Shown piece by piece: positions 24,355-39,710 of a stretch of 62,536 nt of DNA (position 1 is its first letter; each line of letters opens with the position of its first letter). The notes below the pieces were generated by a model. That model saw only the letters and a program-made list of their open reading frames with translations. It had not been told where the DNA came from and made no database searches. This DNA comes from Deinococcales bacterium (GTDB taxonomy: Bacteria; Deinococcota; Deinococci; Deinococcales; JAAFIG01), in NCBI GenBank assembly GCA_043778225.1, contig JAYWGM010000098.1:1-62536 (forward strand), written 5' to 3'. Position numbers and translations under genes: made by a program.

Positions 24355-24858
24355 ATGACCATTCCGTTTGATTACTTGGTGCGCGAAGCCGAAAGCATTA
24401 ACGTCAAGCTCGAGATGATTGCTGGCGTGCCTGTTTGGGAAGCCAGTCCAGTCTTTAGACACCAACAAGCATCCCAACGCATTGCCACGAGTCTAAAGCC
24501 ATTACCAGACTCGAGTTGTGCTTGTATTCAGACGCAAGATACTTATTTTAAGTTTCCTGATGGTTCGCAAAAACGCCCTGATATTGCTGTTCTTTGCCAA
24601 GAACCGCCACTCGAGGCTCAGGATGCGCCGCTCGAGATGATCCCTGTCGCAGTGGTAGAAATCATCTCGAAGAATTACGAATACAAGGATTTAGTGCTTG
24701 CTCCACCGTTTTATCTCGAGGTTGGGGTTTTGGACATTCTGATTTTTAATCCAGCCGACAATTCGGTGCTGCATTATCGCCGTGACTTTGAGCAACCCAA
24801 GCAATACATTTCACCAATTACGCTGCAACTCGAGTGTGGTTGTGAAATCACAGTCTAA
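24355..24858 (+). CDS. Uma2-family endonuclease
   Basis: RPDIAV, VVEIISK; paralog of 13340-13825. Confidence 0.85.
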   Translation: MTIPFDYLVREAESINVKLEMIAGVPVWEASPVFRHQQASQRIATSLKPLPDSSCACIQTQDTYFKFPDGSQKRPDIAVLCQEPPLEAQDAPLEMIPVAVVEIISKNYEYKDLVLAPPFYLEVGVLDILIFNPADNSVLHYRRDFEQPKQYISPITLQLECGCEITV

Positions 24859-24902
24859 ATCGACTTTTTACCTTTTATCCCTTTTACCTTTTAACCCTGC
24901 CC

Positions 24903-25958
24903 TTAAACCATCGGCAGCATGATTTGTAAACTTTGCACACTAATCCGCCCTGCGATGGCTCGAGCCACATCGGTTAGGGCAATGGCTTCTTTGGTATTTG
25001 GATTTGAAACCACGACTGGAGCGCCATTGTCGCCAGCCGCCCTAACCTCGAGTCCAATTGGAATTTCGCCCAGCACTGGAATACCAAGTTTATCAGCTTG
25101 GGTTTTAGCACCGCCATGTCCGAAAATATCGTAGCGGTTGCCCGTGTCTGGGGCAATAAAGTAACTCATGTTTTCGACGATGCCTAAAATTGGCACATTG
25201 GCTTTGCGAAACATATCCACAGCCCTTGTCGCATCTATCCACGCGACATCTTGAGGCGTAGAAACAATCACAGCGCCTGTTATCGTTACGCTTTGGGTCA
25301 GGGATAACTGGACATCACCAGTCCCCGGTGGCAAATCTATGACCAAGTAATCCAACTCGCCCCACGCCGCATCGTGCAGGGTTTGGCGCACAAAACTGTG
25401 CAGCATTGGTCCGCGCCAAACAGTGGCTTGTCCGGGCGCAACTAAATTGCCCATGCTGATGAATTTAAGTCCGTGTTTCTCGAGCGGCAGCATTTTTTTG
25501 TTCTCATCAGCAAACATTCGCTCGTCGGTCATGCCGAACATATGGGCGATGCTTGGTCCGTAAACGTCCGAATCGAGCAGTCCAACTTTTGCACCGTCTT
25601 TGGCAAGCGAACAAGCAATGTTGGCGGCGACCGTACTTTTGCCTACGCCGCCTTTGCCGCTTCCGACCACAATCACGTGCTTGACCCCCGGAATTGGGTT
25701 TTCGGTCGGTGGGCGTACCTGAGCGCCAAAGGTCACAACAACGTGTTTGACTTCGGGGACTTTCAGGACAGCCGCCACCACATCGGATTCGATTTTGCCT
25801 TTTAATGGACAGGCTGGGGTGGTCAATTCAACTTTGACATGAACAATGTTGCCTTCAATAGACATTTTTTCAATCATCCCAAGCGTGACCAAATCCTTAT
25901 GAAGTTCGGGGTCATTAACGGTTCGTAAAGCATTCATCACAGCAGCTTCGGTAATCAT
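24903..25958 (-). CDS. mrp: Mrp/NBP35 Fe-S cluster carrier ATPase with N-terminal DUF59-like domain
   Basis: DPEL, TTPACP, GKGGVGKST, WRGPM, DLPPGTGD, ENMS. Confidence 0.93.
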   Translation of the reverse strand: MITEAAVMNALRTVNDPELHKDLVTLGMIEKMSIEGNIVHVKVELTTPACPLKGKIESDVVAAVLKVPEVKHVVVTFGAQVRPPTENPIPGVKHVIVVGSGKGGVGKSTVAANIACSLAKDGAKVGLLDSDVYGPSIAHMFGMTDERMFADENKKMLPLEKHGLKFISMGNLVAPGQATVWRGPMLHSFVRQTLHDAAWGELDYLVIDLPPGTGDVQLSLTQSVTITGAVIVSTPQDVAWIDATRAVDMFRKANVPILGIVENMSYFIAPDTGNRYDIFGHGGAKTQADKLGIPVLGEIPIGLEVRAAGDNGAPVVVSNPNTKEAIALTDVARAIAGRISVQSLQIMLPMV

Positions 25959-27063: not shown

Positions 27064-27079
27064 GATTTTTGATTTCTCG

Positions 27080-27110
27080 AGCAGCCAGCCCAGACTGGCT
27101 GCTTTTTATT
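27080..27110 (+). terminator. Intrinsic terminator
   Basis: AGCAGCCAG-loop-CTGGCTGCT followed by a T-tract. Confidence 0.8.
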
Positions 27111-27122
27111 TATACTGGTTCT

Positions 27123-28133
27123 ATGGATAAAAAATTTCGGGTTGTTCTGGTTGGTTGTGGCAGCATGGCACACACTTGGGTTGAGTATGCCAAGACACGC
27201 GACGACACCAGCCTTGTGGCGGTGGTGGATATTCAGCTTGCAGCAGCCACTGCCCTGCTCGAGCGCCATGTTTTGACCTGCCAAGCCTTTACGAGCCTGA
27301 CAGAAGCCCTAAACGCCACCAATGCCAATCTGGTGTTTGATGTGACCATCCCCGAGGCACACGAAGAAGTGGTTCTAACCGCCTTAAAGGCTGGTTGTGA
27401 TGTCTTTGGCGAGAAACCCTTAGCCGCTTCTTTGGCAGCCGCACAAGGCATGGTCAAGACGGCACTCGAGACAGGTCGGACGTTTGCAATCATGCAGAAT
27501 CGGCGCTTTAACAATCAAATTCGAGCGTATCAAGATTTGATAAAAGTTATTGGCGATGTTGGTTTTTTGAGTGCCAATTTTTTTATTGCGCCACATTTTG
27601 GTGGTTTTCGTGAAGCCATGCAGAGTCCGTTGCTGCTCGATATGGCAATTCATACCTTTGATGCCGCCCGTTTTTTATCTGGTGCAGATGCGGTGTCGGT
27701 CTACTGCCATGAATTTAATCCTAAGGGTTCTTGGTACGCGGGTCATGCCAATGCCATCTGTATTTTTGAAATGTCGGATGGTTCTGTCTTTTCTTATAAC
27801 GGTTCATGGGCTGCCGAAGGCGCTTCTACCGCTTGGGAAGCCGAGTGGCGGGTGGTCGGTTCTCGAGGGACAGCCATTTGGGATGGTACAAACCCGCCAT
27901 TTGCCGAAATTGTTCAAAACCCAGAGCAAGAAAGTTTTATCAAAGACTACACTCGAGTAACAGCCATTGTGCCAACACTGCCAGAAGGACACCATGCTTG
28001 TTTGGAGGATATGTTTACGGCGCTGCTGGAAAACCTTGCGCCACAAACCATTTGCACCGATAACATCAAAAGTCTTGCGATGGTTTTTGCTGCCCTCGAG
28101 AGTTCGCGGCTTGGACAAAAAGTGATGCTTTAA
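27123..28133 (+). CDS. Gfo/Idh/MocA family oxidoreductase
   Basis: GCGSMA, GEKPL, QNRRF, DMAIHTFD. Confidence 0.9.
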   Translation: MDKKFRVVLVGCGSMAHTWVEYAKTRDDTSLVAVVDIQLAAATALLERHVLTCQAFTSLTEALNATNANLVFDVTIPEAHEEVVLTALKAGCDVFGEKPLAASLAAAQGMVKTALETGRTFAIMQNRRFNNQIRAYQDLIKVIGDVGFLSANFFIAPHFGGFREAMQSPLLLDMAIHTFDAARFLSGADAVSVYCHEFNPKGSWYAGHANAICIFEMSDGSVFSYNGSWAAEGASTAWEAEWRVVGSRGTAIWDGTNPPFAEIVQNPEQESFIKDYTRVTAIVPTLPEGHHACLEDMFTALLENLAPQTICTDNIKSLAMVFAALESSRLGQKVML

Positions 28134-28141
28134 CCCGAAAT

Positions 28142-29977
28142 TTACAATCTCCCCCAACCGATCCCAAAAGGCAATTCGGACTCGAGCCATTCTTGCAAAT
28201 TGGGTTTGAATAAAAAACGTTTTTCAAAATTAAATACACCAGATTCTAAACGCACAATCACTTCACGACTGGCAAAACGATTCGGATGCCGCAAAGCAAT
28301 CTGCTGCGGCTCGAGCTTAACCGCATGGCAATGCACAAAATCGGTGTTTTCAATGACTCGCCAGATTGCCCCAAGCCCAGCAAAAGCGTACAACTCGAGA
28401 ATAGAACCATGAAGCTCACAGCAATGCAGTACAGGCTCGAGACGCACAGGTAAACGCCCAACAGCTTCCCACCAATCCTTATGCAAGTTGCGTTCAACAA
28501 TCAGTTCATCATCTAATTCTGGGCGTAAAGTCTGCCAGTCCTCGAGACCAACCGTATGTTCTGGTTGTGAGGCGTACAAAACGCGGTGCTTAGGACTCAG
28601 ATGCGCTGGCAGCATTTGAAATCGCATGACCTGATTGCATAATTCATCCAATGGCTGACGGTCAGCCCCAAAGAACCGAATGGCATAAGGTTCAGTTCGC
28701 AATTTAACTTCGATATGCAGTTCGTCTAAATCAAAGTCTAAAGGGTACTCGAGTGCCATTTCGCCAGTCGAATCCCACTTTGCTTGCCAACGCTTACGTA
28801 CATAACGACCATCTTCTTTAATTCGGACTTCGGCAACTAGGCTACGACCCTCGAGTGGACGATGACTTAATTTTTCACCACGATGATCATAAAACGACCA
28901 TTCGAGTTCGGGTAAACAAAATAAGCGTTTGACACGAGCGGCTGGCTCATTTTCCACAAATACCTGCGCTGAGGTTTCACCGATATTTAAGCGAAAAGTA
29001 ACTTGGTTGCTTTTAAAATGAATTTCTTTCTCAGTCGTTCCACTTAGCTTTAAGACTCGAGTACCCATTGGTAAATCTGAAAATTTGAGTTCGACTTCGC
29101 TACCGACTTCGTAAGTATTATCCGAGTATTGAACTTCAACCTGAAATTCTTCTCGAGTCCGCTTGGGTTGCAGAACCTCATCTTCATCTGGTTCTTGTTC
29201 AATACGAATGAATTTGGGTTTGGCTTGAACAACTTTTAATTCACCACGCAATTGAACCAACAGCGTTTTTAAGGCTTTTTCGGCTTTGTTGCGAAAAAAT
29301 TCAATTGGATTGGGGTCAGAAAAAACAAATCCTGCTTCGTGTAAACGTTGGCTTAGGGTCTCGAGATGAGCGGTATCTACTCTATTTTTTAGGATAAATT
29401 CAATGGCTTCTCGTAAACCAGAAAAGATTCGGTTGTAAGAAGCACATTGGCGTACAGTTCGTTCAATTTCTTCGGGTGAAGCATCCACCAGCAATTTACG
29501 AATTAGCTCAGGAGTCATTTCAAACTGGGTAGCTTGAAAAAAGTACCGCCGAAACAGCTTCTCGAGTGTTTTTGCGTTTAGGCTTTTAATACCCCAAATG
29601 GCATCAATGGTTTTAACAAATTCCCGACGGTCATCTTGTACAAATAAATTCCTTATTCGAGAATCAGACTTTAATGCACGCTCGAGCAAATCACGATGAG
29701 TATTTTTTAAGGTACTTTGAAACTGAAGTTCGTGATGTAAATTTGACCAGAATTCACGTTCATTTTCACCAAGTTCACGAAAAAATGAGTAGCCACGAAA
29801 AAAGAGCAGTAACCTTTGGTAACTCGCTTGATTCCAACCCCAAGGTTGTTTCCATATCAATAAAATTTGTGGCAGCAGATGATTCCGATACTCGGTATAA
29901 CTGACTTCAACATTGATTGGATCATCACGTTCAAGTCGGCTCAGTAGATTTTTGTCAAGAATTTGGTCAAAACTCAT
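28142..29977 (-). CDS. Uncharacterised 611-aa protein, gene 4 of the helicase operon
   Basis: Long ORF, ATGA-coupled to 29974-30558; helical-looking N half and beta-rich C half; no motif recognised. Confidence 0.8.
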   Translation of the reverse strand: MSFDQILDKNLLSRLERDDPINVEVSYTEYRNHLLPQILLIWKQPWGWNQASYQRLLLFFRGYSFFRELGENEREFWSNLHHELQFQSTLKNTHRDLLERALKSDSRIRNLFVQDDRREFVKTIDAIWGIKSLNAKTLEKLFRRYFFQATQFEMTPELIRKLLVDASPEEIERTVRQCASYNRIFSGLREAIEFILKNRVDTAHLETLSQRLHEAGFVFSDPNPIEFFRNKAEKALKTLLVQLRGELKVVQAKPKFIRIEQEPDEDEVLQPKRTREEFQVEVQYSDNTYEVGSEVELKFSDLPMGTRVLKLSGTTEKEIHFKSNQVTFRLNIGETSAQVFVENEPAARVKRLFCLPELEWSFYDHRGEKLSHRPLEGRSLVAEVRIKEDGRYVRKRWQAKWDSTGEMALEYPLDFDLDELHIEVKLRTEPYAIRFFGADRQPLDELCNQVMRFQMLPAHLSPKHRVLYASQPEHTVGLEDWQTLRPELDDELIVERNLHKDWWEAVGRLPVRLEPVLHCCELHGSILELYAFAGLGAIWRVIENTDFVHCHAVKLEPQQIALRHPNRFASREVIVRLESGVFNFEKRFLFKPNLQEWLESELPFGIGWGRL

Positions 29978-30558
29978 TGTGTTACCTCAGTAATTTCAAG
30001 CCAACGTAAAAGTACCCATTGAGCAATTAAAAATCGTCTGGCTTGGACTAAATCAGGATTTTTACCTTGATAGGCTTGTTCCAGACAATCTTGAATTTCA
30101 AGTTGCCAGTGTGTAACTGCCGTCTGGACAGCTTCTTTTGGAGCTTGGTGTTCATGTCCGTAAATTGCTGGGAAATCATCTACGCTTTCAGCAAATTCAA
30201 GGGCGATGCTATGCCAAAATCCCTCTCGAGAAACCCTATTTTGAAGTTTTTTTAGCTGAATTTGTGCTTCCAGTAAAGAATTTTTAAGTAACTCTAAATT
30301 GTCTAACTCGGCAATTTTAGATTTGAGTAATTCAAGTTCAGAACGTAAATGACCGCTTTCCATCTCGAGTGTCGGTATGCGACTGGCTTGTGCGGCTTGC
30401 AATTTTAAGCTGTGATGCTCGAGCCTGAGTTTTTCAAGGCTTGACTCTAGCTCCAAGCGCTTTTGGCGTTCCTCTATCCGAAGTAGTTGTTCTTTTTGCC
30501 ATTCAGATTCATAAAAGTCTTTATGTTCCTGTAGGGTAATTCGTTCATTTTCGGTCAT
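29974..30558 (-). CDS. Coiled-coil protein, gene 3 of the helicase operon
   Basis: Heptad-rich N-terminal ~105 aa, small helical C-terminal domain (FLIAQWVLLRWLE); ATGA overlaps. Confidence 0.8.
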   Translation of the reverse strand: MTENERITLQEHKDFYESEWQKEQLLRIEERQKRLELESSLEKLRLEHHSLKLQAAQASRIPTLEMESGHLRSELELLKSKIAELDNLELLKNSLLEAQIQLKKLQNRVSREGFWHSIALEFAESVDDFPAIYGHEHQAPKEAVQTAVTHWQLEIQDCLEQAYQGKNPDLVQARRFLIAQWVLLRWLEITEVTQ

Positions 30559-31853
30559 GCTATGCCTCGGTAACGTGGTGACTCGAGTATGCCAAGTAAT
30601 TGCTTTAGAACATTTTCCTGACGAAAAACTTGGGATTTCAAAAATGTGGTTAATGGTAAATTTACCGAGTCAAGCAGCAGTTGCTCGAGACCAAGCAGTA
30701 ACACCCCTCGAATCTGATTTTTTGGGTCTGTAAAATCCGAATAATTGGTTTGAGTCAGCAGACTATTGTCATGGTTCAGAAATGCCTTATAAATTTCTAG
30801 CAATCGAATCAATCTTTGGGCGGGTTCAAACGATAAGTGGCGATAATCAATAATCAGAGCATTCTCGAGTTTATTGCTACCAATACTTTCTTGTTGTCCA
30901 CGTTCGCGCTGGGCGTACTCTTGAGCTAATTTCTTTTGGTTATTTTGGGCTTTTTCGAGTTCTTGAGTCAAATCGTTGTTGCGCTGGCGAAGCTGCAATC
31001 TGGCAGCATTAACTTCGAGCAAGGCTTGGGTTTTCTCGAGTAAATCAGCAGCTAAACGCTGGTTTGTTTGGCGTAAAGGTTCGAGCGTAAGTTCAGCTTG
31101 GTTAGCTTTGGCAGTAAGTAACTTGGTTACTTCCTCAATTTTAGTTTTGGTGGCAGCCGTTTCTTGTTGTTCTCGCGCCAATGAATCTTTTAGCCGAGTT
31201 ATTTGGGCTTTGAATTTTTTGGCTTCCTCAAGTTGTTTTTGTTGCTCTACACGAATAGCTTGTTGAATTTGAGTTGTGTGTGCTTGCTCGAGTCGCATCT
31301 TTTGTTGGGCTAACTCTTTTTGTTTGACTGCCTCGGCTTGCTCGAACTTACGTTTTACCTGCTCGAGTTCACGTTCAAGTTGTTGATTGCGTTGCTTTTC
31401 AGTGCGTAAATTCTGCTCAAGCTCAACTATTTGTTTGGTTTGTGTAGTGAGCCGACCTGACCAAATATCAGAAGATTCTTTACCTACTAAAAAATTAGCA
31501 ATCTCAAGAACTGCATTACTGGTTGTTTCGTCTATGGTTTGGTTATTCTCGAGTTTTTCAAGTGTAGCGCTTTGACTGTCAATCCAGATTTGGGCGTACT
31601 GCTCGAGAAGTTTTGGTTCTTGCTCACAGATTTTTGTTAGAGCATCAAGAATTTGCTGGCTGCGAATGTCAGCTAGTTTACTGACTTTAGCCCCAATTAA
31701 ACGTACTCCCATCGCTGGGGATTTACGGAAAAACTTGATGTAAATATCGGAAATTGTTTTCTGTGGCATCATTGTAATAGCTCGAGTCAAGTAATCGCTA
31801 TTTTCTAGCTCGAGCAGCTTATTTTTGTATTGTTCGATGTTTTCTGGGGTCAT
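30555..31853 (-). CDS. Long coiled-coil protein, gene 2 of the helicase operon
   Basis: Q/E/K-rich heptads over about aa 135-320 between globular ends; ATGA overlaps. Confidence 0.82.
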   Translation of the reverse strand: MTPENIEQYKNKLLELENSDYLTRAITMMPQKTISDIYIKFFRKSPAMGVRLIGAKVSKLADIRSQQILDALTKICEQEPKLLEQYAQIWIDSQSATLEKLENNQTIDETTSNAVLEIANFLVGKESSDIWSGRLTTQTKQIVELEQNLRTEKQRNQQLERELEQVKRKFEQAEAVKQKELAQQKMRLEQAHTTQIQQAIRVEQQKQLEEAKKFKAQITRLKDSLAREQQETAATKTKIEEVTKLLTAKANQAELTLEPLRQTNQRLAADLLEKTQALLEVNAARLQLRQRNNDLTQELEKAQNNQKKLAQEYAQRERGQQESIGSNKLENALIIDYRHLSFEPAQRLIRLLEIYKAFLNHDNSLLTQTNYSDFTDPKNQIRGVLLLGLEQLLLDSVNLPLTTFLKSQVFRQENVLKQLLGILESPRYRGIA

Positions 31854-34800
31854 ATCGTTTTACCTCGTTTGCCTGTTTTCTCGAGTTCTTGCAATCCATA
31901 TTCACTAATTTTATAAATTGGATGACCATTAAACTCAGCTTCATTCATCAGTTTTCGTCCCGTTAAGGTCTGAATGGCTTTTTCAATGTCGCTGTGGGTT
32001 GCACCTATCAGACTACCAAAATGTCTCGAGTTAGATTCAAACCATTTAAGTTGAATCGGGTGTTCCTGTCCGCCAAATTCGCTTTCAGCCCCACGCAGCA
32101 CCATCGAAATTCGGCGCGTACCTATTCCACTGTACTCAAGGTTAAAACTCGGGTCAGCTTTGCGCTTTTTCTCAATCCAAGCAAGACGTTCTTTGCGATG
32201 GTCGCGTAAAAACTCGAGAATGGCTCGGTTGGGTTTGAGGATTTGTACGATTTCATCATCGGTAATGCGTGGTGTGTCTGACCACGGCTTATAATCCTGG
32301 TTGCAATTACCGCAACACGTTTCTTTGTCACGTTTTGGGTCGGCCCGTTCAGCAAAGACTTTGAGTAGTGAGTCGCGTTTGCAAGCACTGACACTCGCAT
32401 ATTGTTTGATGGCTTGTATGCCAATTTTTCGTTCTTGGAATCGTTTTTCAATCACTCGAGAAAACTCGGTCAAATCGGGGTTTGTCTCGGCTTTGATTTC
32501 AATGCTGGATTCAAAAGTTGCAAAAAACAAAGAGGGGTCAGCAATTTGACGGCGCAACTCGTGCAGCGCGTCGCTGAGGGCATTGGCTTCTGCTTTCGGC
32601 AATTCCGTAAAATCTATCCAATGCCTCTGTCGAGCCTTGCTAATCGAGGTTATTTTTAATTTCTCGAGACTTATAAGATTTTCTGCCCCTAAATCTTGCA
32701 GCACTGACCACTGACTAATAAATAACTGGGCTTTACCGAGTTCATAGGTGTAATCAAGCAGTTTGCTTTGCTGCATGGTATTTAGTAGCCACAGCACCCC
32801 TTCTGGCTCGAGGTCAGCTTTTTGCTCGTCGGTGCTTAAAATTTCGTTAATGGCTTCTTGGATTTTATCGTTGTACATTCGGATTGTGCCTTTGTTTTTG
32901 CGTAATAACTCGAGCAAGGCTTCGGCATGGTACTTTTGGGGTTGTCCAAGCTGCCCGATGTATTCGTGCAAACTCCAATCTCGGCTCGAGTGCATCAGTA
33001 CGGCGTAAGCTGGTTTGTGGTCACGTCCCGCCCGTCCTGCTTCTTGAACATAAGCGGGTATGTTGCTGGGTGGCTCGAAGTGAATCACGGCTCGAACATT
33101 GGTTTTATCCACACCCATACCAAAGGCGTTGGTGGCGACAATCACTTTGTTTGTACCTTCAATAAAATGATCTTGAATTTCACTGCGAATCACTGCCGAT
33201 AAACCACCGTGATAGGCTTCAATCACTTGTCCCGTGTAGGTGCTTAAAGCTCGAGCCACGGTTTCGGCTTTTTTGCGAGTGGATACATAAACAATAATGG
33301 CGTAGTCGTCTTTAAATTTTTCGGCTGCCCAAGTCAGAATTTGGATGGTGCTGCGAAGTTTGCTGCGGTCATCGCTACGATCATCTCGTTTCCCCGGAAA
33401 ATGTTCCGCATGGTATTCGATGTTTGGGCGGTTGCTGCTGTCCCAAATGGCTTCTTGGACATTCAGGTTCAGATTTTTTTGCAAGTCATCACGCACTGCT
33501 TGGGTTGCAGTGGCAGTCAGGCAGACCGTTGGCAATTTTAAGCCAATCTCAGCAATTTTACTTTTCACCCGCAGGTAATCAGGGCGAAAATCATGTCCCC
33601 AATCCGATAAACAATGGGCTTCGTCATAAACAAGGCGTTTAAGTTTCCCTTTGGAAGCCAAGCGCAATAGCACTTGCTGGAGGTCATTATTCTTGTTGAC
33701 TCGCTCTGGGCTAAGGTACAACAAATTGACATCACCTTTTTCGGCTTGCTCGAGAATACTGCGTTGCTCTGCGCCTGGAATCCCAGAGTAAATAGCGGCG
33801 ACTGGCGCTCCTCGATCTTTCAAACCCTGCACTTGGTCTTTCATCAGGGCAATTAGTGGCGATATGACAATTGTTAGCCCACCCTCGAGAATGGCTGGTG
33901 CTTGAAAGGTAAGGCTTTTCCCATAACCAGTTGGTAGCAGCACAAGTGCATCTTGTTTGTTAATCGCAGCTTCAATAGCTTGTTGTTGTTTGGGTTTGAT
34001 CTCTCGCCCCTCAGTCCAATACAAGCGCATTAGCTCCGCAAGCGCAGCTTTCAACGAAATGGTTTTGCTTGCCCATTTTTCTCGTAACTCGAGTAAGTCC
34101 TTGGTGGTTTTATCCATTAGTGTCTCTTCAAAGCCACTAAAATTGATGCCCAGAATTTCTTCTAATTTTTTGTAAAACTCAATTCGACTCTTGGGTTTAT
34201 GCACTTGGTCGCCGTCAATAAATTTTCGTGGCAAAGATTCTAGAACATCAAAGTAATATGTGGAGGTTAAAATTCGTCTATCCCACAGAACAAATGCGCC
34301 ATTGCCCGATAGCGCTCGGTCATCGCGGATTAAACGTCCGAAGGCTTGGGTAAACGTCAGTAAGGCTTTGCCAAGGTAATATGTCCAAGCAGCATCACGT
34401 CCATGCGCTTTTTCGATTCTGGCTTTGCGTTTCTCGAGCAGAGGTGTCGGTGTCGGAAACGGAATCCGCTCGAGTGCCACAAGGTTCAGGTCGTAAAAAT
34501 CTACGCCTTCCATAAAGGCTCGAGTACCAAGTGCCACGGCTTTATCGCTACGCTTATTAACATCGCTGAGTGCCTGAGAAACAGCTTCGCGTTCACGGCG
34601 AGTCAGTGGGGCATGGAGTCTTCCCACGATTTCGGATTCTTTTTCTAGCACTTTCTTGGTTTTCTCGAGCCGACTTCGGGCAGTAAATAAGTTCAGGCTT
34701 CGGTTAATTTGTGGTAATAAATTTTTCAGTTCTTCTTGGTGCAGTTTTTGGAATCGTTCCATGCTCGACATTCGTGCTTCGGGCAAATGTGATGGCAGCA

Positions 34801-37141
34801 GAATATGGGCGCGGTCATACGGCAATGTTTCCTCGAGTCGGCGTTTTTGAATCTCACCAAGGTACAAAACGCTGGTAAAATACTCAAATTCGTCTTTTTC
34901 GCCGGGCAACAAAGTTGCACTGGTTAGTGTGACACTTTTAGCGCGTTCCCAAAGCGGTTTTAGAAATTGCTCGAGGTCAATTGGTTGGGCAACGTGTTCC
35001 CAGTTATTCTTGGCATCTAGGGTGGTTAAGTATAACCAATCATCGTCAGGTTCAATCTCTGTGTCTGAGGTTTGTTGGTTTTGATTGCTTTTGGTAGCTT
35101 CAAGGCGCTCTTGCAGCATTTCATTGTGTTGCTTGAAAAATTCTAAGGTCGGCTCGAGTTTGAATCTTATTTGATGGGCTTGGCGCACGAATTCGTACAA
35201 TGCAGCTTGAAGGTTTTGCATCGCTTCACGCCAGCGTTTTTCATAAAGAATCAGACGCATCCACTCTGGGGTTTTCATACTTTTTAAGGTGTAGGTTAGC
35301 CCATACTCGATTTCGCCTTTGCCAAATTGTTTAACGAACTGGGTCATCTCGCGGTGATATTCGTTAAACCGCTCAAAGGCTTCAGGAATCAGTCTTTGGC
35401 GCACATGGGTCGCAAGTTCAAGTACCGTGGTTGCATTTTTACCAAGCTGCTCGATTAACTTTTGGCTGTTCAGCAAAATACTACCGTCGGTCAAGCGATT
35501 ACTTGCCAATACCCCTTTTCGAGTCCGTGCATCAAACAATTTCCGCAGATGAAAAACCACATCTTCGGATTTGGAGATTCTGGTAAAGCTATTGGTGGCG
35601 ACATCCTCGAGATTATGGGCTTCATCTATGACCAGATGAAAGGCTTTTTCTTCGACACTTTCGGTATTGGAGTCATCTCGAGACTGGGCTAAACGACTGA
35701 GTAAATAGGCTTGATTGGTAATCCAAAGGCTGCTGGTACTGCGTTGCCGCACATCGGTTTGATAAGCACAGAACTTATAAAATGGGCATTTTTCACGGCA
35801 TCGGCTCGAGACGGTTTGAACATTAAATTTGAGCTCTCGGTAGGCACTCGAGGCTTGCCAATAAAACGGTAAGCTCTCGAGATCAAATTCAGAATTGCGA
35901 ATTAACGCTACCAGCACGGCTCGAGCCGCACCGCCCTGACGAAAATCATCGTCTTCTTCGGGTTTATACTCGAGAATGCTTTCTTCGAGCGCTTCGGTAC
36001 AAATCGAATCCCTGGCGCTTTTGACATTGCTGGCTTTAACGCTGTAGCCCTTAGCGGCAATCTCGCGCAGTTCGTTCATGGCTTGTTCTTGCAGTACCTT
36101 GGTGTGCGTGGCAACAATAATCGTTTCGTTGGACGTATGACTCTGATGATACAAAGCTGGAAAAATGTAGCCTTTGGTTTTACCTGTGCCAGTTGGAGCT
36201 TGAATCATGGCTTTTGGGTTTCGTTCCTCAAAGGCTGCCGTGACCATATGCGCCATTTCGCCTTGAGGGGCGCGGTACTTGGGTAAGTGTTTTTGCATGG
36301 TTTTTAAGGACTCGATTTGTTGGACATCAAAACCATTTGGGACGCGGTTGTGTTTAAGCTCCTCGAGTGCCGTATTGAGTTGCTCCAAACTAAAAAGATT
36401 CTGCTCGAGACCTGTTTTGACCCAAGCTGGAAACAAATCTTTTGAAGCTGGGAATGCCAGTCCTGTAGAATTGAGGAAAGGCACTTGGGCTTCGATTTCT
36501 AGCGCTGCCCGTAATTCAGTCTCGAGGTTAAGTGCTATATCTGGGTAAAACCGTGCTTCTGGTAAGTCCAGCATCTTCCATAAACGCATTTGGATGGCAT
36601 CAGATGGTGGTTTAGCAATCAGACGCTCGAGAACAGTGCGAGTGGCTTTACAGTCCTCTAAGGCTTGGTGAGCGCCTTCCATATCCAGACTTGTAAAGTA
36701 CCGAAACAAATGCCCGACTGAATAACCAAGCAAACCCTCGGGTGGTGTTGGGAATAACAGGTGCGACCAACGCAAAGTGTCCACAGCATTTTTCACGCCA
36801 ACAGGTTCGGGCAAATCAGCTTCTTTTAGAACTCGAGTCAGAATTGGCAAGTCATACTCGTAGATATTATGCCCACACAGCACAGCATCACCAATAAACT
36901 CGAGAAAATCTTGTAAAGCGTGTTCGATGGGAATTTTACCAGCTTCGTATTCGGCATAATCAATGTGCTGGAAAGCATAAAGGTCTTGGCGCAGCTTAGT
37001 TTTGGTTTCAAGAAAACGATGAAAAGTACGTTCACCACAAATTGCAGCCAATTCGACAATCTCGGCTTTTCCTGTATCTGTGTCGGTTGTCTCAAGATCA
37101 AAAATGACTAACTTAGCGCTATCCAAGACCGTATTTTGCAT
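31850..37141 (-). CDS. Fusion of DEDDh 3'-5' exonuclease, DinG-type Fe-S SF2 helicase and RecQ-type helicase
   Basis: Exonuclease: FDLETT, GHNI..YD, HQALED. DinG: QAPTGTGKT, four Cys, IDEAHNL, TSATL, EGVD, QAFGRLIR. RecQ: LPTGYGKS, DEAHC..WGHDFRPDY, TATAT, ATNAFGMGVDK, QEAGRAGRD, C..CCGNC. Confidence 0.92.
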   Translation of the reverse strand: MQNTVLDSAKLVIFDLETTDTDTGKAEIVELAAICGERTFHRFLETKTKLRQDLYAFQHIDYAEYEAGKIPIEHALQDFLEFIGDAVLCGHNIYEYDLPILTRVLKEADLPEPVGVKNAVDTLRWSHLLFPTPPEGLLGYSVGHLFRYFTSLDMEGAHQALEDCKATRTVLERLIAKPPSDAIQMRLWKMLDLPEARFYPDIALNLETELRAALEIEAQVPFLNSTGLAFPASKDLFPAWVKTGLEQNLFSLEQLNTALEELKHNRVPNGFDVQQIESLKTMQKHLPKYRAPQGEMAHMVTAAFEERNPKAMIQAPTGTGKTKGYIFPALYHQSHTSNETIIVATHTKVLQEQAMNELREIAAKGYSVKASNVKSARDSICTEALEESILEYKPEEDDDFRQGGAARAVLVALIRNSEFDLESLPFYWQASSAYRELKFNVQTVSSRCREKCPFYKFCAYQTDVRQRSTSSLWITNQAYLLSRLAQSRDDSNTESVEEKAFHLVIDEAHNLEDVATNSFTRISKSEDVVFHLRKLFDARTRKGVLASNRLTDGSILLNSQKLIEQLGKNATTVLELATHVRQRLIPEAFERFNEYHREMTQFVKQFGKGEIEYGLTYTLKSMKTPEWMRLILYEKRWREAMQNLQAALYEFVRQAHQIRFKLEPTLEFFKQHNEMLQERLEATKSNQNQQTSDTEIEPDDDWLYLTTLDAKNNWEHVAQPIDLEQFLKPLWERAKSVTLTSATLLPGEKDEFEYFTSVLYLGEIQKRRLEETLPYDRAHILLPSHLPEARMSSMERFQKLHQEELKNLLPQINRSLNLFTARSRLEKTKKVLEKESEIVGRLHAPLTRREREAVSQALSDVNKRSDKAVALGTRAFMEGVDFYDLNLVALERIPFPTPTPLLEKRKARIEKAHGRDAAWTYYLGKALLTFTQAFGRLIRDDRALSGNGAFVLWDRRILTSTYYFDVLESLPRKFIDGDQVHKPKSRIEFYKKLEEILGINFSGFEETLMDKTTKDLLELREKWASKTISLKAALAELMRLYWTEGREIKPKQQQAIEAAINKQDALVLLPTGYGKSLTFQAPAILEGGLTIVISPLIALMKDQVQGLKDRGAPVAAIYSGIPGAEQRSILEQAEKGDVNLLYLSPERVNKNNDLQQVLLRLASKGKLKRLVYDEAHCLSDWGHDFRPDYLRVKSKIAEIGLKLPTVCLTATATQAVRDDLQKNLNLNVQEAIWDSSNRPNIEYHAEHFPGKRDDRSDDRSKLRSTIQILTWAAEKFKDDYAIIVYVSTRKKAETVARALSTYTGQVIEAYHGGLSAVIRSEIQDHFIEGTNKVIVATNAFGMGVDKTNVRAVIHFEPPSNIPAYVQEAGRAGRDHKPAYAVLMHSSRDWSLHEYIGQLGQPQKYHAEALLELLRKNKGTIRMYNDKIQEAINEILSTDEQKADLEPEGVLWLLNTMQQSKLLDYTYELGKAQLFISQWSVLQDLGAENLISLEKLKITSISKARQRHWIDFTELPKAEANALSDALHELRRQIADPSLFFATFESSIEIKAETNPDLTEFSRVIEKRFQERKIGIQAIKQYASVSACKRDSLLKVFAERADPKRDKETCCGNCNQDYKPWSDTPRITDDEIVQILKPNRAILEFLRDHRKERLAWIEKKRKADPSFNLEYSGIGTRRISMVLRGAESEFGGQEHPIQLKWFESNSRHFGSLIGATHSDIEKAIQTLTGRKLMNEAEFNGHPIYKISEYGLQELEKTGKRGKTI

Positions 37142-37256: not shown

Positions 37257-39710
37257 CTATTTTTTACGTACAACCCCGCGCACTGCCTGAGCAGTGTACG
37301 GGTCTTCTGCCCACGAATGCTTTGGGTATTTGATTTTTAGTTCGCGGCGCACATTGGGGTACGTATTTTTCCAGAAACTACTTAAATCCTGTGTGACTTG
37401 AACGGGTCGGTAAGCTGGGCTGAGAAGATGCAGCAGCACTGGATTGCGTCTATCATTAACGCTTGGGGTCTCGAGCAAGCCAAAGACTTCTTGGAGGCGC
37501 ACCGCCAGCACGGGCGCAGCGCCATCCAAGTGGTACTCGAGCCGAATCTGGCTACCACTCGGGACAAGCATTTTGGCTGGAGCGAACGTGTCTATTTGGC
37601 GCTGAATTTCCCATGGCAGACTTTGCTCGAGGATGACACGCAAATCAAGGCGGGTAAAATCGGCTTGGCGGCGGACTGGCTCGAGGTGTGGGGCTAACCA
37701 AGTCTCGAGGCTTTCGAGTAATGCCATATCCGAAAAATCCGGGAAAGCATCACCACGCCACAGATGCAGACTCTGAACTCGAGCTTGAAATTGTCGTGCA
37801 TTTTCTGACCACTCGAGCAAGTTTGGGTTCGCCCGAATGGCTTGGCACAGCACACGGTTTTTCTCGAGCATTGGAATAGTAAGCAGTGGTTTAGATTCCA
37901 GTATCAGTTCACCGATTCGGATTTCGGTTCGGGCAATCAGTGCGCCTTCTCGAGTATCCCAACGCAGCACCTCAAGGCTTGTACAAAACGGCTCGAGGTC
38001 TTGGCTCTCGAGCGGGGCGCACAAAAAGACTTTGCCTTCTTCGCTGCCCGCATCGGCTTGAGCAACCGCCAACCACGGCGTACTCTGCAATGGGTCGGAA
38101 GCTGGGAGTTGCACGCCGCGCCCCAAGGCGAGTTTGTAGCGGCGACTCTCGCCTGTTCGCAAGTTTGCAATTCGGTCTGGGTACGCCAGCGCCACAAGTT
38201 TTCCAACCTCAGCATGATTAAATTCGGTAGTCTCGAGTTTGGTTTTAAGAAGTTTTGCCCACTGCTGTGCCACCCGTTCAACTCGGTCTAGGCGCTGTTT
38301 ATCGGCTTCAAAAATTCGTTTGCCCAGTCGGGCAGCCCGTAAGGCTTGGACTCGAGTGCCAAGGTCGGTGCTGTCGGATTCTAAAAAATCGCGTTCCTCG
38401 AGTATCGCTGCCACATCGGCTGCCAGCCCCGCCAAACCTAGGCGCTGCCCCTCGAGTGCCAAATGTGCCAAACGCGGATGGGCTGGAAAGCGCAACATCG
38501 CTTGCCCACGGGTGGTGATGCGGTTGTTTTCGATTGCGCCAAGCCGATTTAGCAGGTCGTTGGCTTTCTCAAGGGCTGTGGGGGCTGGGGGCGTAACCCA
38601 CTCGAGGTTCTGAGCGCCCCAAGCGGCAAGCTCGAGCGCAAGCGGCGCTAAGTCGGACTCGAGAATTTCTGGTTTTCTGGTTCTTTCAAGGCTGGCGTGT
38701 TGGCTTTGTGTCCAAAGTCGGTAGACAATTCCAGCTTGGGTACGCCCAGAGCGTCCAGCCCGTTGGGTGGCTGCGTCAACAGTCACACGCACCGTCTCGA
38801 GCCGCGTCAGGCTGCTCTGTGGGTCAAACCTTGGCACTCGAGCCACACCGCTATCCACCACAATTCGCACCCCTTCGATCGTCAGGCTGGTCTCGGCAAT
38901 GCTAGTGGCAAGCACAATTTTGCGCTTGCCATGTGGGTCGGGCAAAATCGCTTTGGTCTGGGCATCCAAGCTCAGTTCGCCGTACAGAGGCAACACCACT
39001 GCGCCGCAGTCCTCGAGCATTTCCATACAGCGCAAAATTTCGCCAGCCCCAGGCAAAAATGCCAGAATATCGCCAGTCTCGGCTTCGAGCGCTCGAAAAA
39101 TGCTTTGGGCAACTCGGTTTGGGATTGGTGTCTCGAGTTGTTTTGCTGCATAACGAATTTCGATTGGGTAGGAGCGCCCCTCGGCGCGAATAATCGGCGC
39201 ATTCAGTACACTCGAGAGGTGCTGACCATCGAGCGTGGCGCTCATGATGATGATTTTTAAGTCTGGGCGAATTTCGCGTTGAATCTCGCGGCACAGTGCC
39301 AAGGCTAAATCGGCATGGATACTGCGTTCGTGAAACTCGTCAAAAATAACACAGCCCACACCCTCGAGCGTCGGGTCGTCTTGCAACTGGCGGGTTAAAA
39401 GCCCTTCAGTCAGGACAAAAAGCTGGGTTTGGCTCGAGACAACTTTTTCAAAACGCACCTGATAGCCAACGCGCTGCCCAACATTTTGCCACAGTAAACT
39501 TGCCATGCGGGTTGCTACGCTTCTGGCTGCCAAACGACGCGGCTCGAGCATGATCATTTTGCCTTGGATTTGCCCGAGTAAAAAAAGTGGCAACAGCGTA
39601 CTTTTACCCGCTCCTGGGGGGGCTTCTATAATCAAGGTCTGGTTGGTCTCGAGTTGGGCGGCAAGCTCGGGGAGGATTGATTCGATTGGCAGTTGAAACT
39701 TATCAGACAT
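37257..39710 (-). CDS. hrpB: ATP-dependent RNA helicase HrpB
   Basis: APPGAGKS, EPRRLAAR, DEFHER, MSATL, ATSIAETSLTI, QRAGRSGR, C-terminal YPKHSW. Confidence 0.95.
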   Translation of the reverse strand: MSDKFQLPIESILPELAAQLETNQTLIIEAPPGAGKSTLLPLFLLGQIQGKMIMLEPRRLAARSVATRMASLLWQNVGQRVGYQVRFEKVVSSQTQLFVLTEGLLTRQLQDDPTLEGVGCVIFDEFHERSIHADLALALCREIQREIRPDLKIIIMSATLDGQHLSSVLNAPIIRAEGRSYPIEIRYAAKQLETPIPNRVAQSIFRALEAETGDILAFLPGAGEILRCMEMLEDCGAVVLPLYGELSLDAQTKAILPDPHGKRKIVLATSIAETSLTIEGVRIVVDSGVARVPRFDPQSSLTRLETVRVTVDAATQRAGRSGRTQAGIVYRLWTQSQHASLERTRKPEILESDLAPLALELAAWGAQNLEWVTPPAPTALEKANDLLNRLGAIENNRITTRGQAMLRFPAHPRLAHLALEGQRLGLAGLAADVAAILEERDFLESDSTDLGTRVQALRAARLGKRIFEADKQRLDRVERVAQQWAKLLKTKLETTEFNHAEVGKLVALAYPDRIANLRTGESRRYKLALGRGVQLPASDPLQSTPWLAVAQADAGSEEGKVFLCAPLESQDLEPFCTSLEVLRWDTREGALIARTEIRIGELILESKPLLTIPMLEKNRVLCQAIRANPNLLEWSENARQFQARVQSLHLWRGDAFPDFSDMALLESLETWLAPHLEPVRRQADFTRLDLRVILEQSLPWEIQRQIDTFAPAKMLVPSGSQIRLEYHLDGAAPVLAVRLQEVFGLLETPSVNDRRNPVLLHLLSPAYRPVQVTQDLSSFWKNTYPNVRRELKIKYPKHSWAEDPYTAQAVRGVVRKK

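Follow-up and report, generated by a model that had tools for sequence, protein, structure and literature searches.

A Conserved Accessory Four-Gene Operon Encoding an Exonuclease-DinG-RecQ Fusion in Deinococcus-Thermus: a Candidate System Against Invading DNA

Introduction

What is the function of four overlapping genes when the first of them joins an exonuclease, a DinG-type helicase and a RecQ-type helicase in a single chain? The question is raised by a locus of a Deinococcales bacterium (GCA_043778225.1, contig JAYWGM010000098.1; the genome is labeled G000 here), in a stretch of 62,536 nt that is referred to as the window. An earlier note on this DNA had proposed a candidate undescribed defense or DNA-processing operon of four co-directional genes, encoding proteins of 1763, 432, 194 and 611 amino acids (aa); the list of open reading frames (ORFs) and their translations place the genes and their ATGA overlaps exactly where it had put them:

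31850-37141, minus strand: gene 1 (P0001), 1763 aa
30555-31853, minus strand: gene 2 (P0002), 432 aa
29974-30558, minus strand: gene 3 (P0003), 194 aa
28142-29977, minus strand: gene 4 (P0004), 611 aa

All four genes start with ATG and are translated without internal stops. The three junctions are each a 4-nt overlap (gap -4) and, given an ATG start, can only read ATGA. The same four-gene arrangement recurs in 15 of 16 other loci, which is not chance, and the block is a real, conserved, accessory module. Its role, on balance, is probably that of an unnamed helicase-nuclease system against invading DNA.

Conservation and Co-occurrence of the Four Genes

The survey covered 201 genomes of the order, 178 of them of high quality, in five families (f1-f5). 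A profile of gene 4 found matches in 22 of the 201 genomes (17 of the 178), with all five families represented: G000 aside, these were 3/18 genomes in f1, 1/53 in f2, 2/53 in f3, 4/23 in f4 and 11/53 in f5. The block is also missing at the syntenic site of a sister genome, and it is thus not part of a universal core.

Whether the partners accompany the fusion elsewhere was a point raised by the earlier note, and they do, in the same order. Eighteen loci were taken for comparison, 16 of them with the big gene. In 15 of these, the big gene measures 1654-1738 aa and the three genes after it 291-432, 138-223 and 499-635 aa, with junctions that are mostly overlaps of 1 to 26 nt. In the sixteenth (L025, genome G051), gene 2 is interrupted by an ORF for a DDE transposase (L025:8081-8868; PF13586/PF01609); this operon copy is otherwise complete and was probably inactivated by the insertion. 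Searched with P0001 across the 201 genomes, close full-length fusions all lie in genomes with gene 4. Reciprocally, 19 of the 22 gene 4 genomes have a close fusion (E <= 1e-50; 18 full-length and one fragment), and the other three hold a remnant (G075) or a locus at a contig end (G044, G110). Pairwise identities of the four genes correlate across 120 locus pairs with r of 0.92-0.98, values that are inflated by genome relatedness, and no mixing of partners between loci was seen among these pairs. The loci cluster by host family, with genera intermixed within f5.

A sister form also exists. Three g7 genomes encode a divergent triple fusion, in frames of 1753-1771 aa that are 35-39% identical over the middle, and at two g7 loci (L054:2820-10783, G166; L055:8353-16310, G092) the fusion, ~1762 aa long, is followed by one protein of ~895 aa. 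The 897-aa partner belongs to no family and resembles neither the gene 4 nor the gene 2 profile. Upstream of the g7 fusion there is a UvrD-type helicase directly adjacent in L054 and an AAA_5/nSTAND3-like ATPase in L055.

The Fusion Protein Encoded by Gene 1

The reading of gene 1 as an exonuclease-DinG-RecQ fusion agrees with its Pfam and NCBIfam domains, which are arranged as follows:

Residues 12-169: RNase_T, a DEDDh 3'-5' exonuclease (Pfam)
Residues ~284-981: XPD/DinG-type superfamily 2 (SF2) helicase (ResIII, DEAD_2, Helicase_C_2) with four iron-sulfur (Fe-S) cysteines (Pfam)
Residues 1047-1436: RecQ-type SF2 core, DEAD and Helicase_C (Pfam, NCBIfam)
Residues 1562-1613: displaced RecQ Zn-binding motif, followed by the C-terminal tail (Pfam)

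The protein belongs to broad families and stays below the cut-off of every equivalog considered, whether for RecQ, DinG, Exo-DinG or DpdF. Residues 1047-1393 pass the recQ_fam subfamily model TIGR00614 (333.9 bits, cut-off 219.8), and the housekeeping RecQ equivalogs are failed (TIGR01389, 358.2 vs. 640.2; NF008279, 287.5 vs. 1015). The Exo-DinG layout is present, with an N-terminal DEDD exonuclease ahead of a DinG-type helicase and conserved catalytic residues, and the curated Exo-DinG/DinG models are below cut-off (TIGR01407, 225 vs. 547.7; NF005569, 132 vs. 794), as is the DpdF equivalog NF041063 (223.5 vs. 550). A separate RecQ-like paralogue is encoded elsewhere in G000, on contig 15 (C15).

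An alignment of 17 gene 1 orthologues was used to survey the catalytic motifs. Kept in 17/17 orthologues are the DxE, D and H-x4-D motifs of the exonuclease; in the DinG module, Walker A and DE(A/G)H; and in the RecQ module, Walker A, DEAH and motif VI. All three activities of gene 1 are therefore under selection. All four Fe-S cysteines are found in 13 of the 17, the third one being missing from the four f4 loci.

The Partner Proteins and Their Relatives at YprA-Type Helicase Loci

The coiled-coil scaffold and possible sensor that the earlier note had envisaged both have counterparts among the partners. Genes 2 and 3 encode coiled-coil proteins, as seen in alignments and in profile matches to the Protein Data Bank (PDB). 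In the family alignments, gene 2 comprises an N-domain (~11-133), a coiled coil (~135-325) and a conserved C-terminal helical domain (~329-432), and gene 3 pairs a coiled coil at its N-terminus with a conserved C-terminal helical domain, at the end of which stands a W-x-L-L-x-W-L-E-like motif. The two profiles, compared with each other, share only an 11-column coiled-coil match. Gene 4 consists of an all-helical N-domain (1-242) followed by beta-sandwich domains of immunoglobulin (Ig)/FN3-like type (246-590), which is the layout reported for DruH, and its product is a candidate sensor or adaptor. Profile searches of PDB sequences for genes 2, 3 and 4 gave coiled-coil or chance matches only.

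The gene 4 family is small. A word index over 5.8 billion proteins returned 13 members, and an exhaustive profile search of 1.84 billion returned 63 representative clusters, 52 of them at E <= 1e-30. The orthologue on plasmid pTT27 of Thermus thermophilus HB27, TT_RS10755 (L058:12998-14542), carries the label 'transcription antiterminator BglG', which looks like a misannotation, because the window's gene 4 and three further family members that were scanned have no Pfam match.

Weak matches of the gene 4 profile led beyond the fusion loci, to four proteins of ~1000 aa. In profile comparison the gene 4 N-domain matches them with a probability of 98.3% (E 2.6e-14, 225 columns), and as a sequence relationship this N-domain link is solid. 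Of six loci of this ~1000-aa family, on metagenome contigs (L063-L068), four were examined. Three of the four show a gene for ~140 aa, a coiled-coil protein of ~490 aa, a helicase of 1461-1489 aa with DEAD, Helicase_C and MZB domains, and the ~1000-aa protein, often followed by a DpdA/TGT-like gene; in the fourth, the contig end was reached before any helicase could appear. The gene 2 N-domain is matched by the ~490-aa coiled-coil protein (probability 94.6%, E 7e-8). The ~140-aa protein resembles the gene 2 C-domain at 23% (E 9e-4), which is suggestive only, and the ~490-aa family showed no similarity to gene 3 in profile comparison.

The helicase of these loci is of YprA type, its best PADLOC matches being DpdJ, DruE, DrmA and SngC, and the loci adjoin HerA-NurA, SIR2-caspase or nSTAND-SIR2 genes. 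They apparently represent an unnamed system in defense islands. L063-L067 resemble the four-gene block in having the same four kinds of part and homologous N-domains of gene 4 and gene 2; they differ from it in helicase family, gene order and protein sizes, and in the frequent presence of the DpdA/TGT-like gene.

Comparison With Named Systems

A match to a system that already has a name was looked for in PADLOC-DB v2 and none was obtained: the partners were unmatched, and gene 1 drew generic helicase models only (DpdF, PsyrT and typeIV_DinG, the last at 1.3e-72). Genes 2-4 match no Dpd model in PADLOC. The typeIV_DinG match is generic as well; the eight flanking ORFs contain no cas gene of a Type IV-A CRISPR system by NCBIfam, no array repeat scan having been made.

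Among named systems, Druantia III is a close comparison. Its DruH protein, of the YjiT family, has an N-terminal helical region and Ig-like domains and probably acts as a sensor in partnership with the helicase-nuclease DruE (10.64898/2026.05.12.724681). Both systems combine a very large SF2 helicase-nuclease with a protein of this build, and both are set in a defense island or mobile element. In the ESM Atlas, gene 4 is nearest to clusters with PF27201 YjiT_N and PF27205 (score 0.91, 192/256 features). They differ in that gene 1 is a DEDDh exonuclease with DinG and RecQ modules and not a YprA/MZB-type DruE, that two additional coiled-coil genes are present here, and that gene 4 has half the length of DruH. 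Gene 1 has no MZB domain in Pfam, and the DruE model is not among its best 25 of 47 PADLOC families. No DruH or YjiT match for the gene 4 family was found in PADLOC or in the precomputed Pfam column. The link of gene 4 to DruH is only a lead.

ARMADA, BRIGADE and TALON are systems centered on a YprA-like helicase, joined by BrxHII and PglX, by Dpd-like genes, or by NERD, TPR-CSD and TBP (section 5 of 10.1101/2025.09.15.676423). The four-gene operon has no YprA-like helicase, and the definitions in that section do not fit the L063-L067 loci either.

The architecture of gene 1 has partial parallels. WRN carries a DEDD 3'-5' exonuclease N-terminal to a RecQ helicase. In Exo-DinG of Staphylococcus aureus and Bacillus subtilis, a DEDD exonuclease lies N-terminal to DinG (PMC12525004, PMC12345164). 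Gene 1 shares with both an N-terminal DEDD 3'-5' exonuclease fused to a helicase, and differs from them in having both helicases in one chain and in a DinG part that keeps four Fe-S cysteines. With RecBCD and AddAB the likeness would be one of function only, two motors of opposite polarity and a nuclease in one machine; the motors there are of superfamily 1 (SF1) and unrelated to the SF2 motors here, for which no Chi logic is known.

Prior Literature

The fusion itself is not new. The HB27 protein was described as a 'unique three-domain fusion (DnaQ, DinG, RecQ)' that HB8 does not have, and was listed among repair-type genes (Omelchenko 2005, PMC1274311). Later accounts treat it as recQ, a gene of recombinational repair on pTT27, and report it to be a shell gene that is highly permissive in transposon sequencing (Tn-seq) (PMC13140390, PMC11143384); a recQ helicase is also listed on a Thermus megaplasmid (PMC5529391). 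The accessible text of these four papers does not mention the partners or the operon, and that of a DinG review does not contain the word 'RecQ' (PMC11981726). Literature searches, supplements aside, returned no study of the operon or of the partners. The HB27 protein is an orthologue of gene 1, and its locus carries all four genes, in the order seen here, whereas the available portions of the earlier accounts note the fusion only and not its partners, operon, distribution or function. What is new here is the fold of gene 4 and the homology of the gene 4 and gene 2 N-domains to partners of YprA-type helicases.

Accessory Character and Neighborhoods

Eight genomes of the window's genus were compared. 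The operon is present in G055, adjoining hrpB; in G010, the same site holds ApbC, oxidoreductase, M20 peptidase and hrpB genes and no operon; and all that is left in G075 is a 77-residue piece from the 3' end of gene 4, 75% identical (L041:3948-4190), which lies between an M20 peptidase gene and two co-directional ORFs (566 and 456 aa) that have no Pfam family. The site seems to be a hotspot of gene-block exchange. The GC content of the operon is 44.2%, compared with 47.9% in the rest of the window, and that of genes 2-4 is 40-42%.

A Thermus-type gene 4 query of a plasmid collection returned 21 records, all of them Thermaceae megaplasmids, typed non-mobilizable, and pTT27 of HB27 is one of these. 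On this plasmid (L058) the order is TT_RS10770, annotated as 'RecQ family helicase', the hypothetical TT_RS10765 and TT_RS10760, and TT_RS10755; after the operon come a reverse-gyrase remnant and, 4 kb away, a type III-B Cmr module.

Neighbors were scanned as 70 flanking ORFs from the 16 loci with the big gene. Over these loci and the named plasmids, genes of restriction-modification, BREX, CRISPR, toxin-antitoxin, integrase or plasmid replication are frequent. Genes of defense or mobile elements include HsdR, an integrase and IS200 (L025), HsdS (L026), an integrase (L031) and an Xre-RES pair (L032). The group also includes SUKH immunity (L035), RepA directly upstream together with DUF499 (L037), an HTH_11+WCX regulator (L038), and VWA and tubulin-like genes (L033, L034). 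Among the named plasmids, VapBC and IS256 accompany the operon on one, and BrxL, MoxR-VWA, UvrD and XerD on another; on an M. taiwanensis plasmid, RepA/ParAB and a PIN-type toxin-antitoxin pair are nearby.

Several recurrences were recorded as side observations. In several Thermaceae loci (L033, L034, L060 and L061) the operon is closely followed by genes with a VWA domain, accompanied by MerR, MoxR or tubulin-like ones, and UvrD-type helicases are found near the operon or its sister form in L024, L040, L054 and L060. On T. oshimai pTHEOS01, a coding sequence for a 594-aa '3'-5' exonuclease' (THEOS_RS14130, L060:3666-5450) lies directly upstream of a 1716-aa fusion and may represent that fusion's N-terminal module, duplicated or split off.

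A Proposed Mechanism

Characterized DinG/XPD enzymes move 5'-3', and characterized RecQ enzymes 3'-5'. In the scheme that we infer from domains and context, which takes in defense, complex formation, helicase polarities, bipolar action, target and trigger, the four genes would encode one accessory, horizontally mobile machine directed against phage, plasmid or transforming DNA, with gene 1 as the effector. Its DinG-type and RecQ-type motors would be of opposite polarity and could for that reason, each on its own strand, advance in one direction from an end, nick or fork, like RecB and RecD, and the DEDDh exonuclease would trim the 3'-ended strand, as in WRN and Exo-DinG. Licensing of the effector would fall to gene 4, as sensor or adaptor, and the coiled-coil proteins from genes 2 and 3 would provide the assembly with a scaffold or a means of dimerizing.

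A broader proposal can be made more tentatively, and falls short of being probable. Genes 2-4 might be a sensor-and-scaffold cassette that is portable and has in evolution been joined to two or more unrelated giant SF2 effectors, one being Exo-DinG-RecQ of Deinococcus-Thermus and another a YprA helicase of the DruE/DrmA type in other bacteria; together these might make up a new immune superfamily distantly tied to Druantia III, with the fusion as a single-polypeptide, bipolar, RecBCD-like shredder of foreign DNA.

If the role is defense, the fusion would add a new effector type to those of Druantia, DISARM, Dpd and ARMADA, with an exonuclease and two motors of opposite polarity in one chain, and accessory proteins would be exchangeable between unrelated helicases, which bears on how infection is sensed. 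The proposal is directly testable in T. thermophilus HB27, a non-pathogenic and genetically tractable laboratory strain, which has the operon on pTT27, alongside HB8, reported to be without the fusion. Such work would settle the role of a gene that is counted in Thermus papers as the repair helicase 'recQ', and a bipolar helicase-nuclease in thermostable form could be of use as an enzyme.

Evidence Against Defense and Alternative Explanations

A number of observations weigh against the proposed defense role. Since the loci group by host family, much of the block's spread may be vertical inheritance with loss. Many surroundings are ordinary: the window's own flanks are HrpB and an oxidoreductase; L030 is flanked by the housekeeping genes for RecA and RNase Y; L027, L028, L031 and L036 have transporters or metabolic genes as flanks; and housekeeping flanks in the scan of the 16 loci include a transporter, an aldehyde dehydrogenase and a P-type ATPase. 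Genes 2-4 belong to no Pfam, NCBIfam or PADLOC family, the sole exception being weak coiled-coil matches of gene 2 to JetC. Compared with the gene 4 family profile by hhalign, K-12 YjiT reached a probability of 2.4% and a DruH profile of 18 sequences 4.3%, neither being significant, and a further profile test of the DruH link gave 1.6%, likewise not significant. A solved DruH (9tud_A) is not among the listed fold matches of gene 4, its presence in the fold library not being established. No match for the ~1000-aa family was obtained in PADLOC, in Pfam or in the precomputed Pfam column, and a role of that family in defense is deduced from context. Deinococcus-Thermus bacteria are said to lack RecBC. 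With RecBC lacking, and with DinG and RecQ both being classic repair families, a role in end resection would be natural.

Such a role is the most serious rival, and we regard it as rather doubtful. The block would be an accessory machine of repair or recombination, in which a single-chain bipolar helicase-nuclease resects ends or processes stalled forks, the partners serve as loaders or scaffolds, and the whole is an optional extra on megaplasmids. Gene 1 is indeed built of DinG, RecQ and a DnaQ-like exonuclease, families known from repair; the fusion was listed with repair-type genes (PMC1274311) and counted as recQ in recombinational repair (PMC13140390, PMC11143384); UvrD-type helicases recur nearby (L024, L040, L054, T. 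oshimai); and RecA is a neighbor in L030, as HrpB is upstream in the window. Against this, the block is found in just 22 of 201 genomes and is missing at the syntenic site of a sister genome, and G000 has a RecQ of its own. Tn-seq shows the HB27 gene to be highly permissive, and it belongs to the shell (PMC13140390, PMC11143384), and there is no conserved damage-response palindrome upstream. Two of the partners, moreover, are homologous to partners of a defense-type YprA helicase in defense islands, which speaks for a defense system over repair.

A function for the megaplasmid or mobile element itself, and not for host immunity, is a second rival and quite improbable. It would comprise the processing of replication intermediates, maintenance, plasmid competition or DNA transfer. 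All 21 matches in the plasmid collection are on Thermaceae megaplasmids, RepA lies directly upstream in L037, RepA/ParAB are near the operon in M. taiwanensis, and genera are intermixed within f5. On the other side, the copies in the window, f4 and f3 are found among ordinary genes on large contigs or chromosomes, and the plasmids are typed non-mobilizable. The pTT27 of HB8 is reported to be without the fusion (PMC1274311), and therefore the fusion is not needed for that type of replicon.

That the four genes are mere neighbors without a joint function is most improbable, for although gene 1 relatives in g7 genomes have another partner, a single 897-aa protein, all five families conserve the order of the genes, their overlaps and their co-variation, and the block is present or lost as one unit.

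Flanking Features of the Window and Minor Observations

The family scans agree with the position given in the earlier note, between hrpB and a convergent oxidoreductase. The features around the block are:

37257-39710, minus strand: hrpB, upstream of and co-directional with gene 1 (TIGR01970 HrpB equivalog, E 1.4e-280)
37237-37213, minus strand: terminator-like hairpin that follows the hrpB stop and precedes gene 1 (sequence scan)
37155-37150, minus strand: TATAAT hexamer, 8 nt before the gene 1 ATG (read from the sequence, position by count)
27069-28133, plus strand: Gfo/Idh/MocA-type oxidoreductase, convergent to the block (NCBIfam scan)

The same note had assigned the block its own TATAAT promoter. 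The hexamer is present, but a consensus promoter scan found no -35/-10 pair at this site upstream of gene 1, and promoter-like sites across the region are not in excess (9 found vs. 13.5 +/- 3.8 in shuffles). With only 8 nt to the ATG, the hexamer would suit a leaderless or near-leaderless mRNA, and it is a possible -10 box of such a gene 1 transcript. Judged from the sequence, it is plausible that the block is driven by its own promoter.

A radiation/desiccation response motif (RDRM) was also considered. The sequence over the start of gene 1 loosely resembles the Deinococcus RDRM palindrome, and the idea was dropped, as no conserved palindrome was seen upstream of the 16 other operons, two g7 loci included.

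Elsewhere in the window, a stretch of ~35-45 nt at 24863-24910, between the ORFs 24355-24858 (plus strand) and 24903-25958 (minus strand), recurs at ~25 further places, in G000 itself and in genomes of its genus, with 83-94% identity. It has the look of a short, dispersed repeat similar to repetitive extragenic palindromes (REP) or miniature inverted-repeat transposable elements (MITE).

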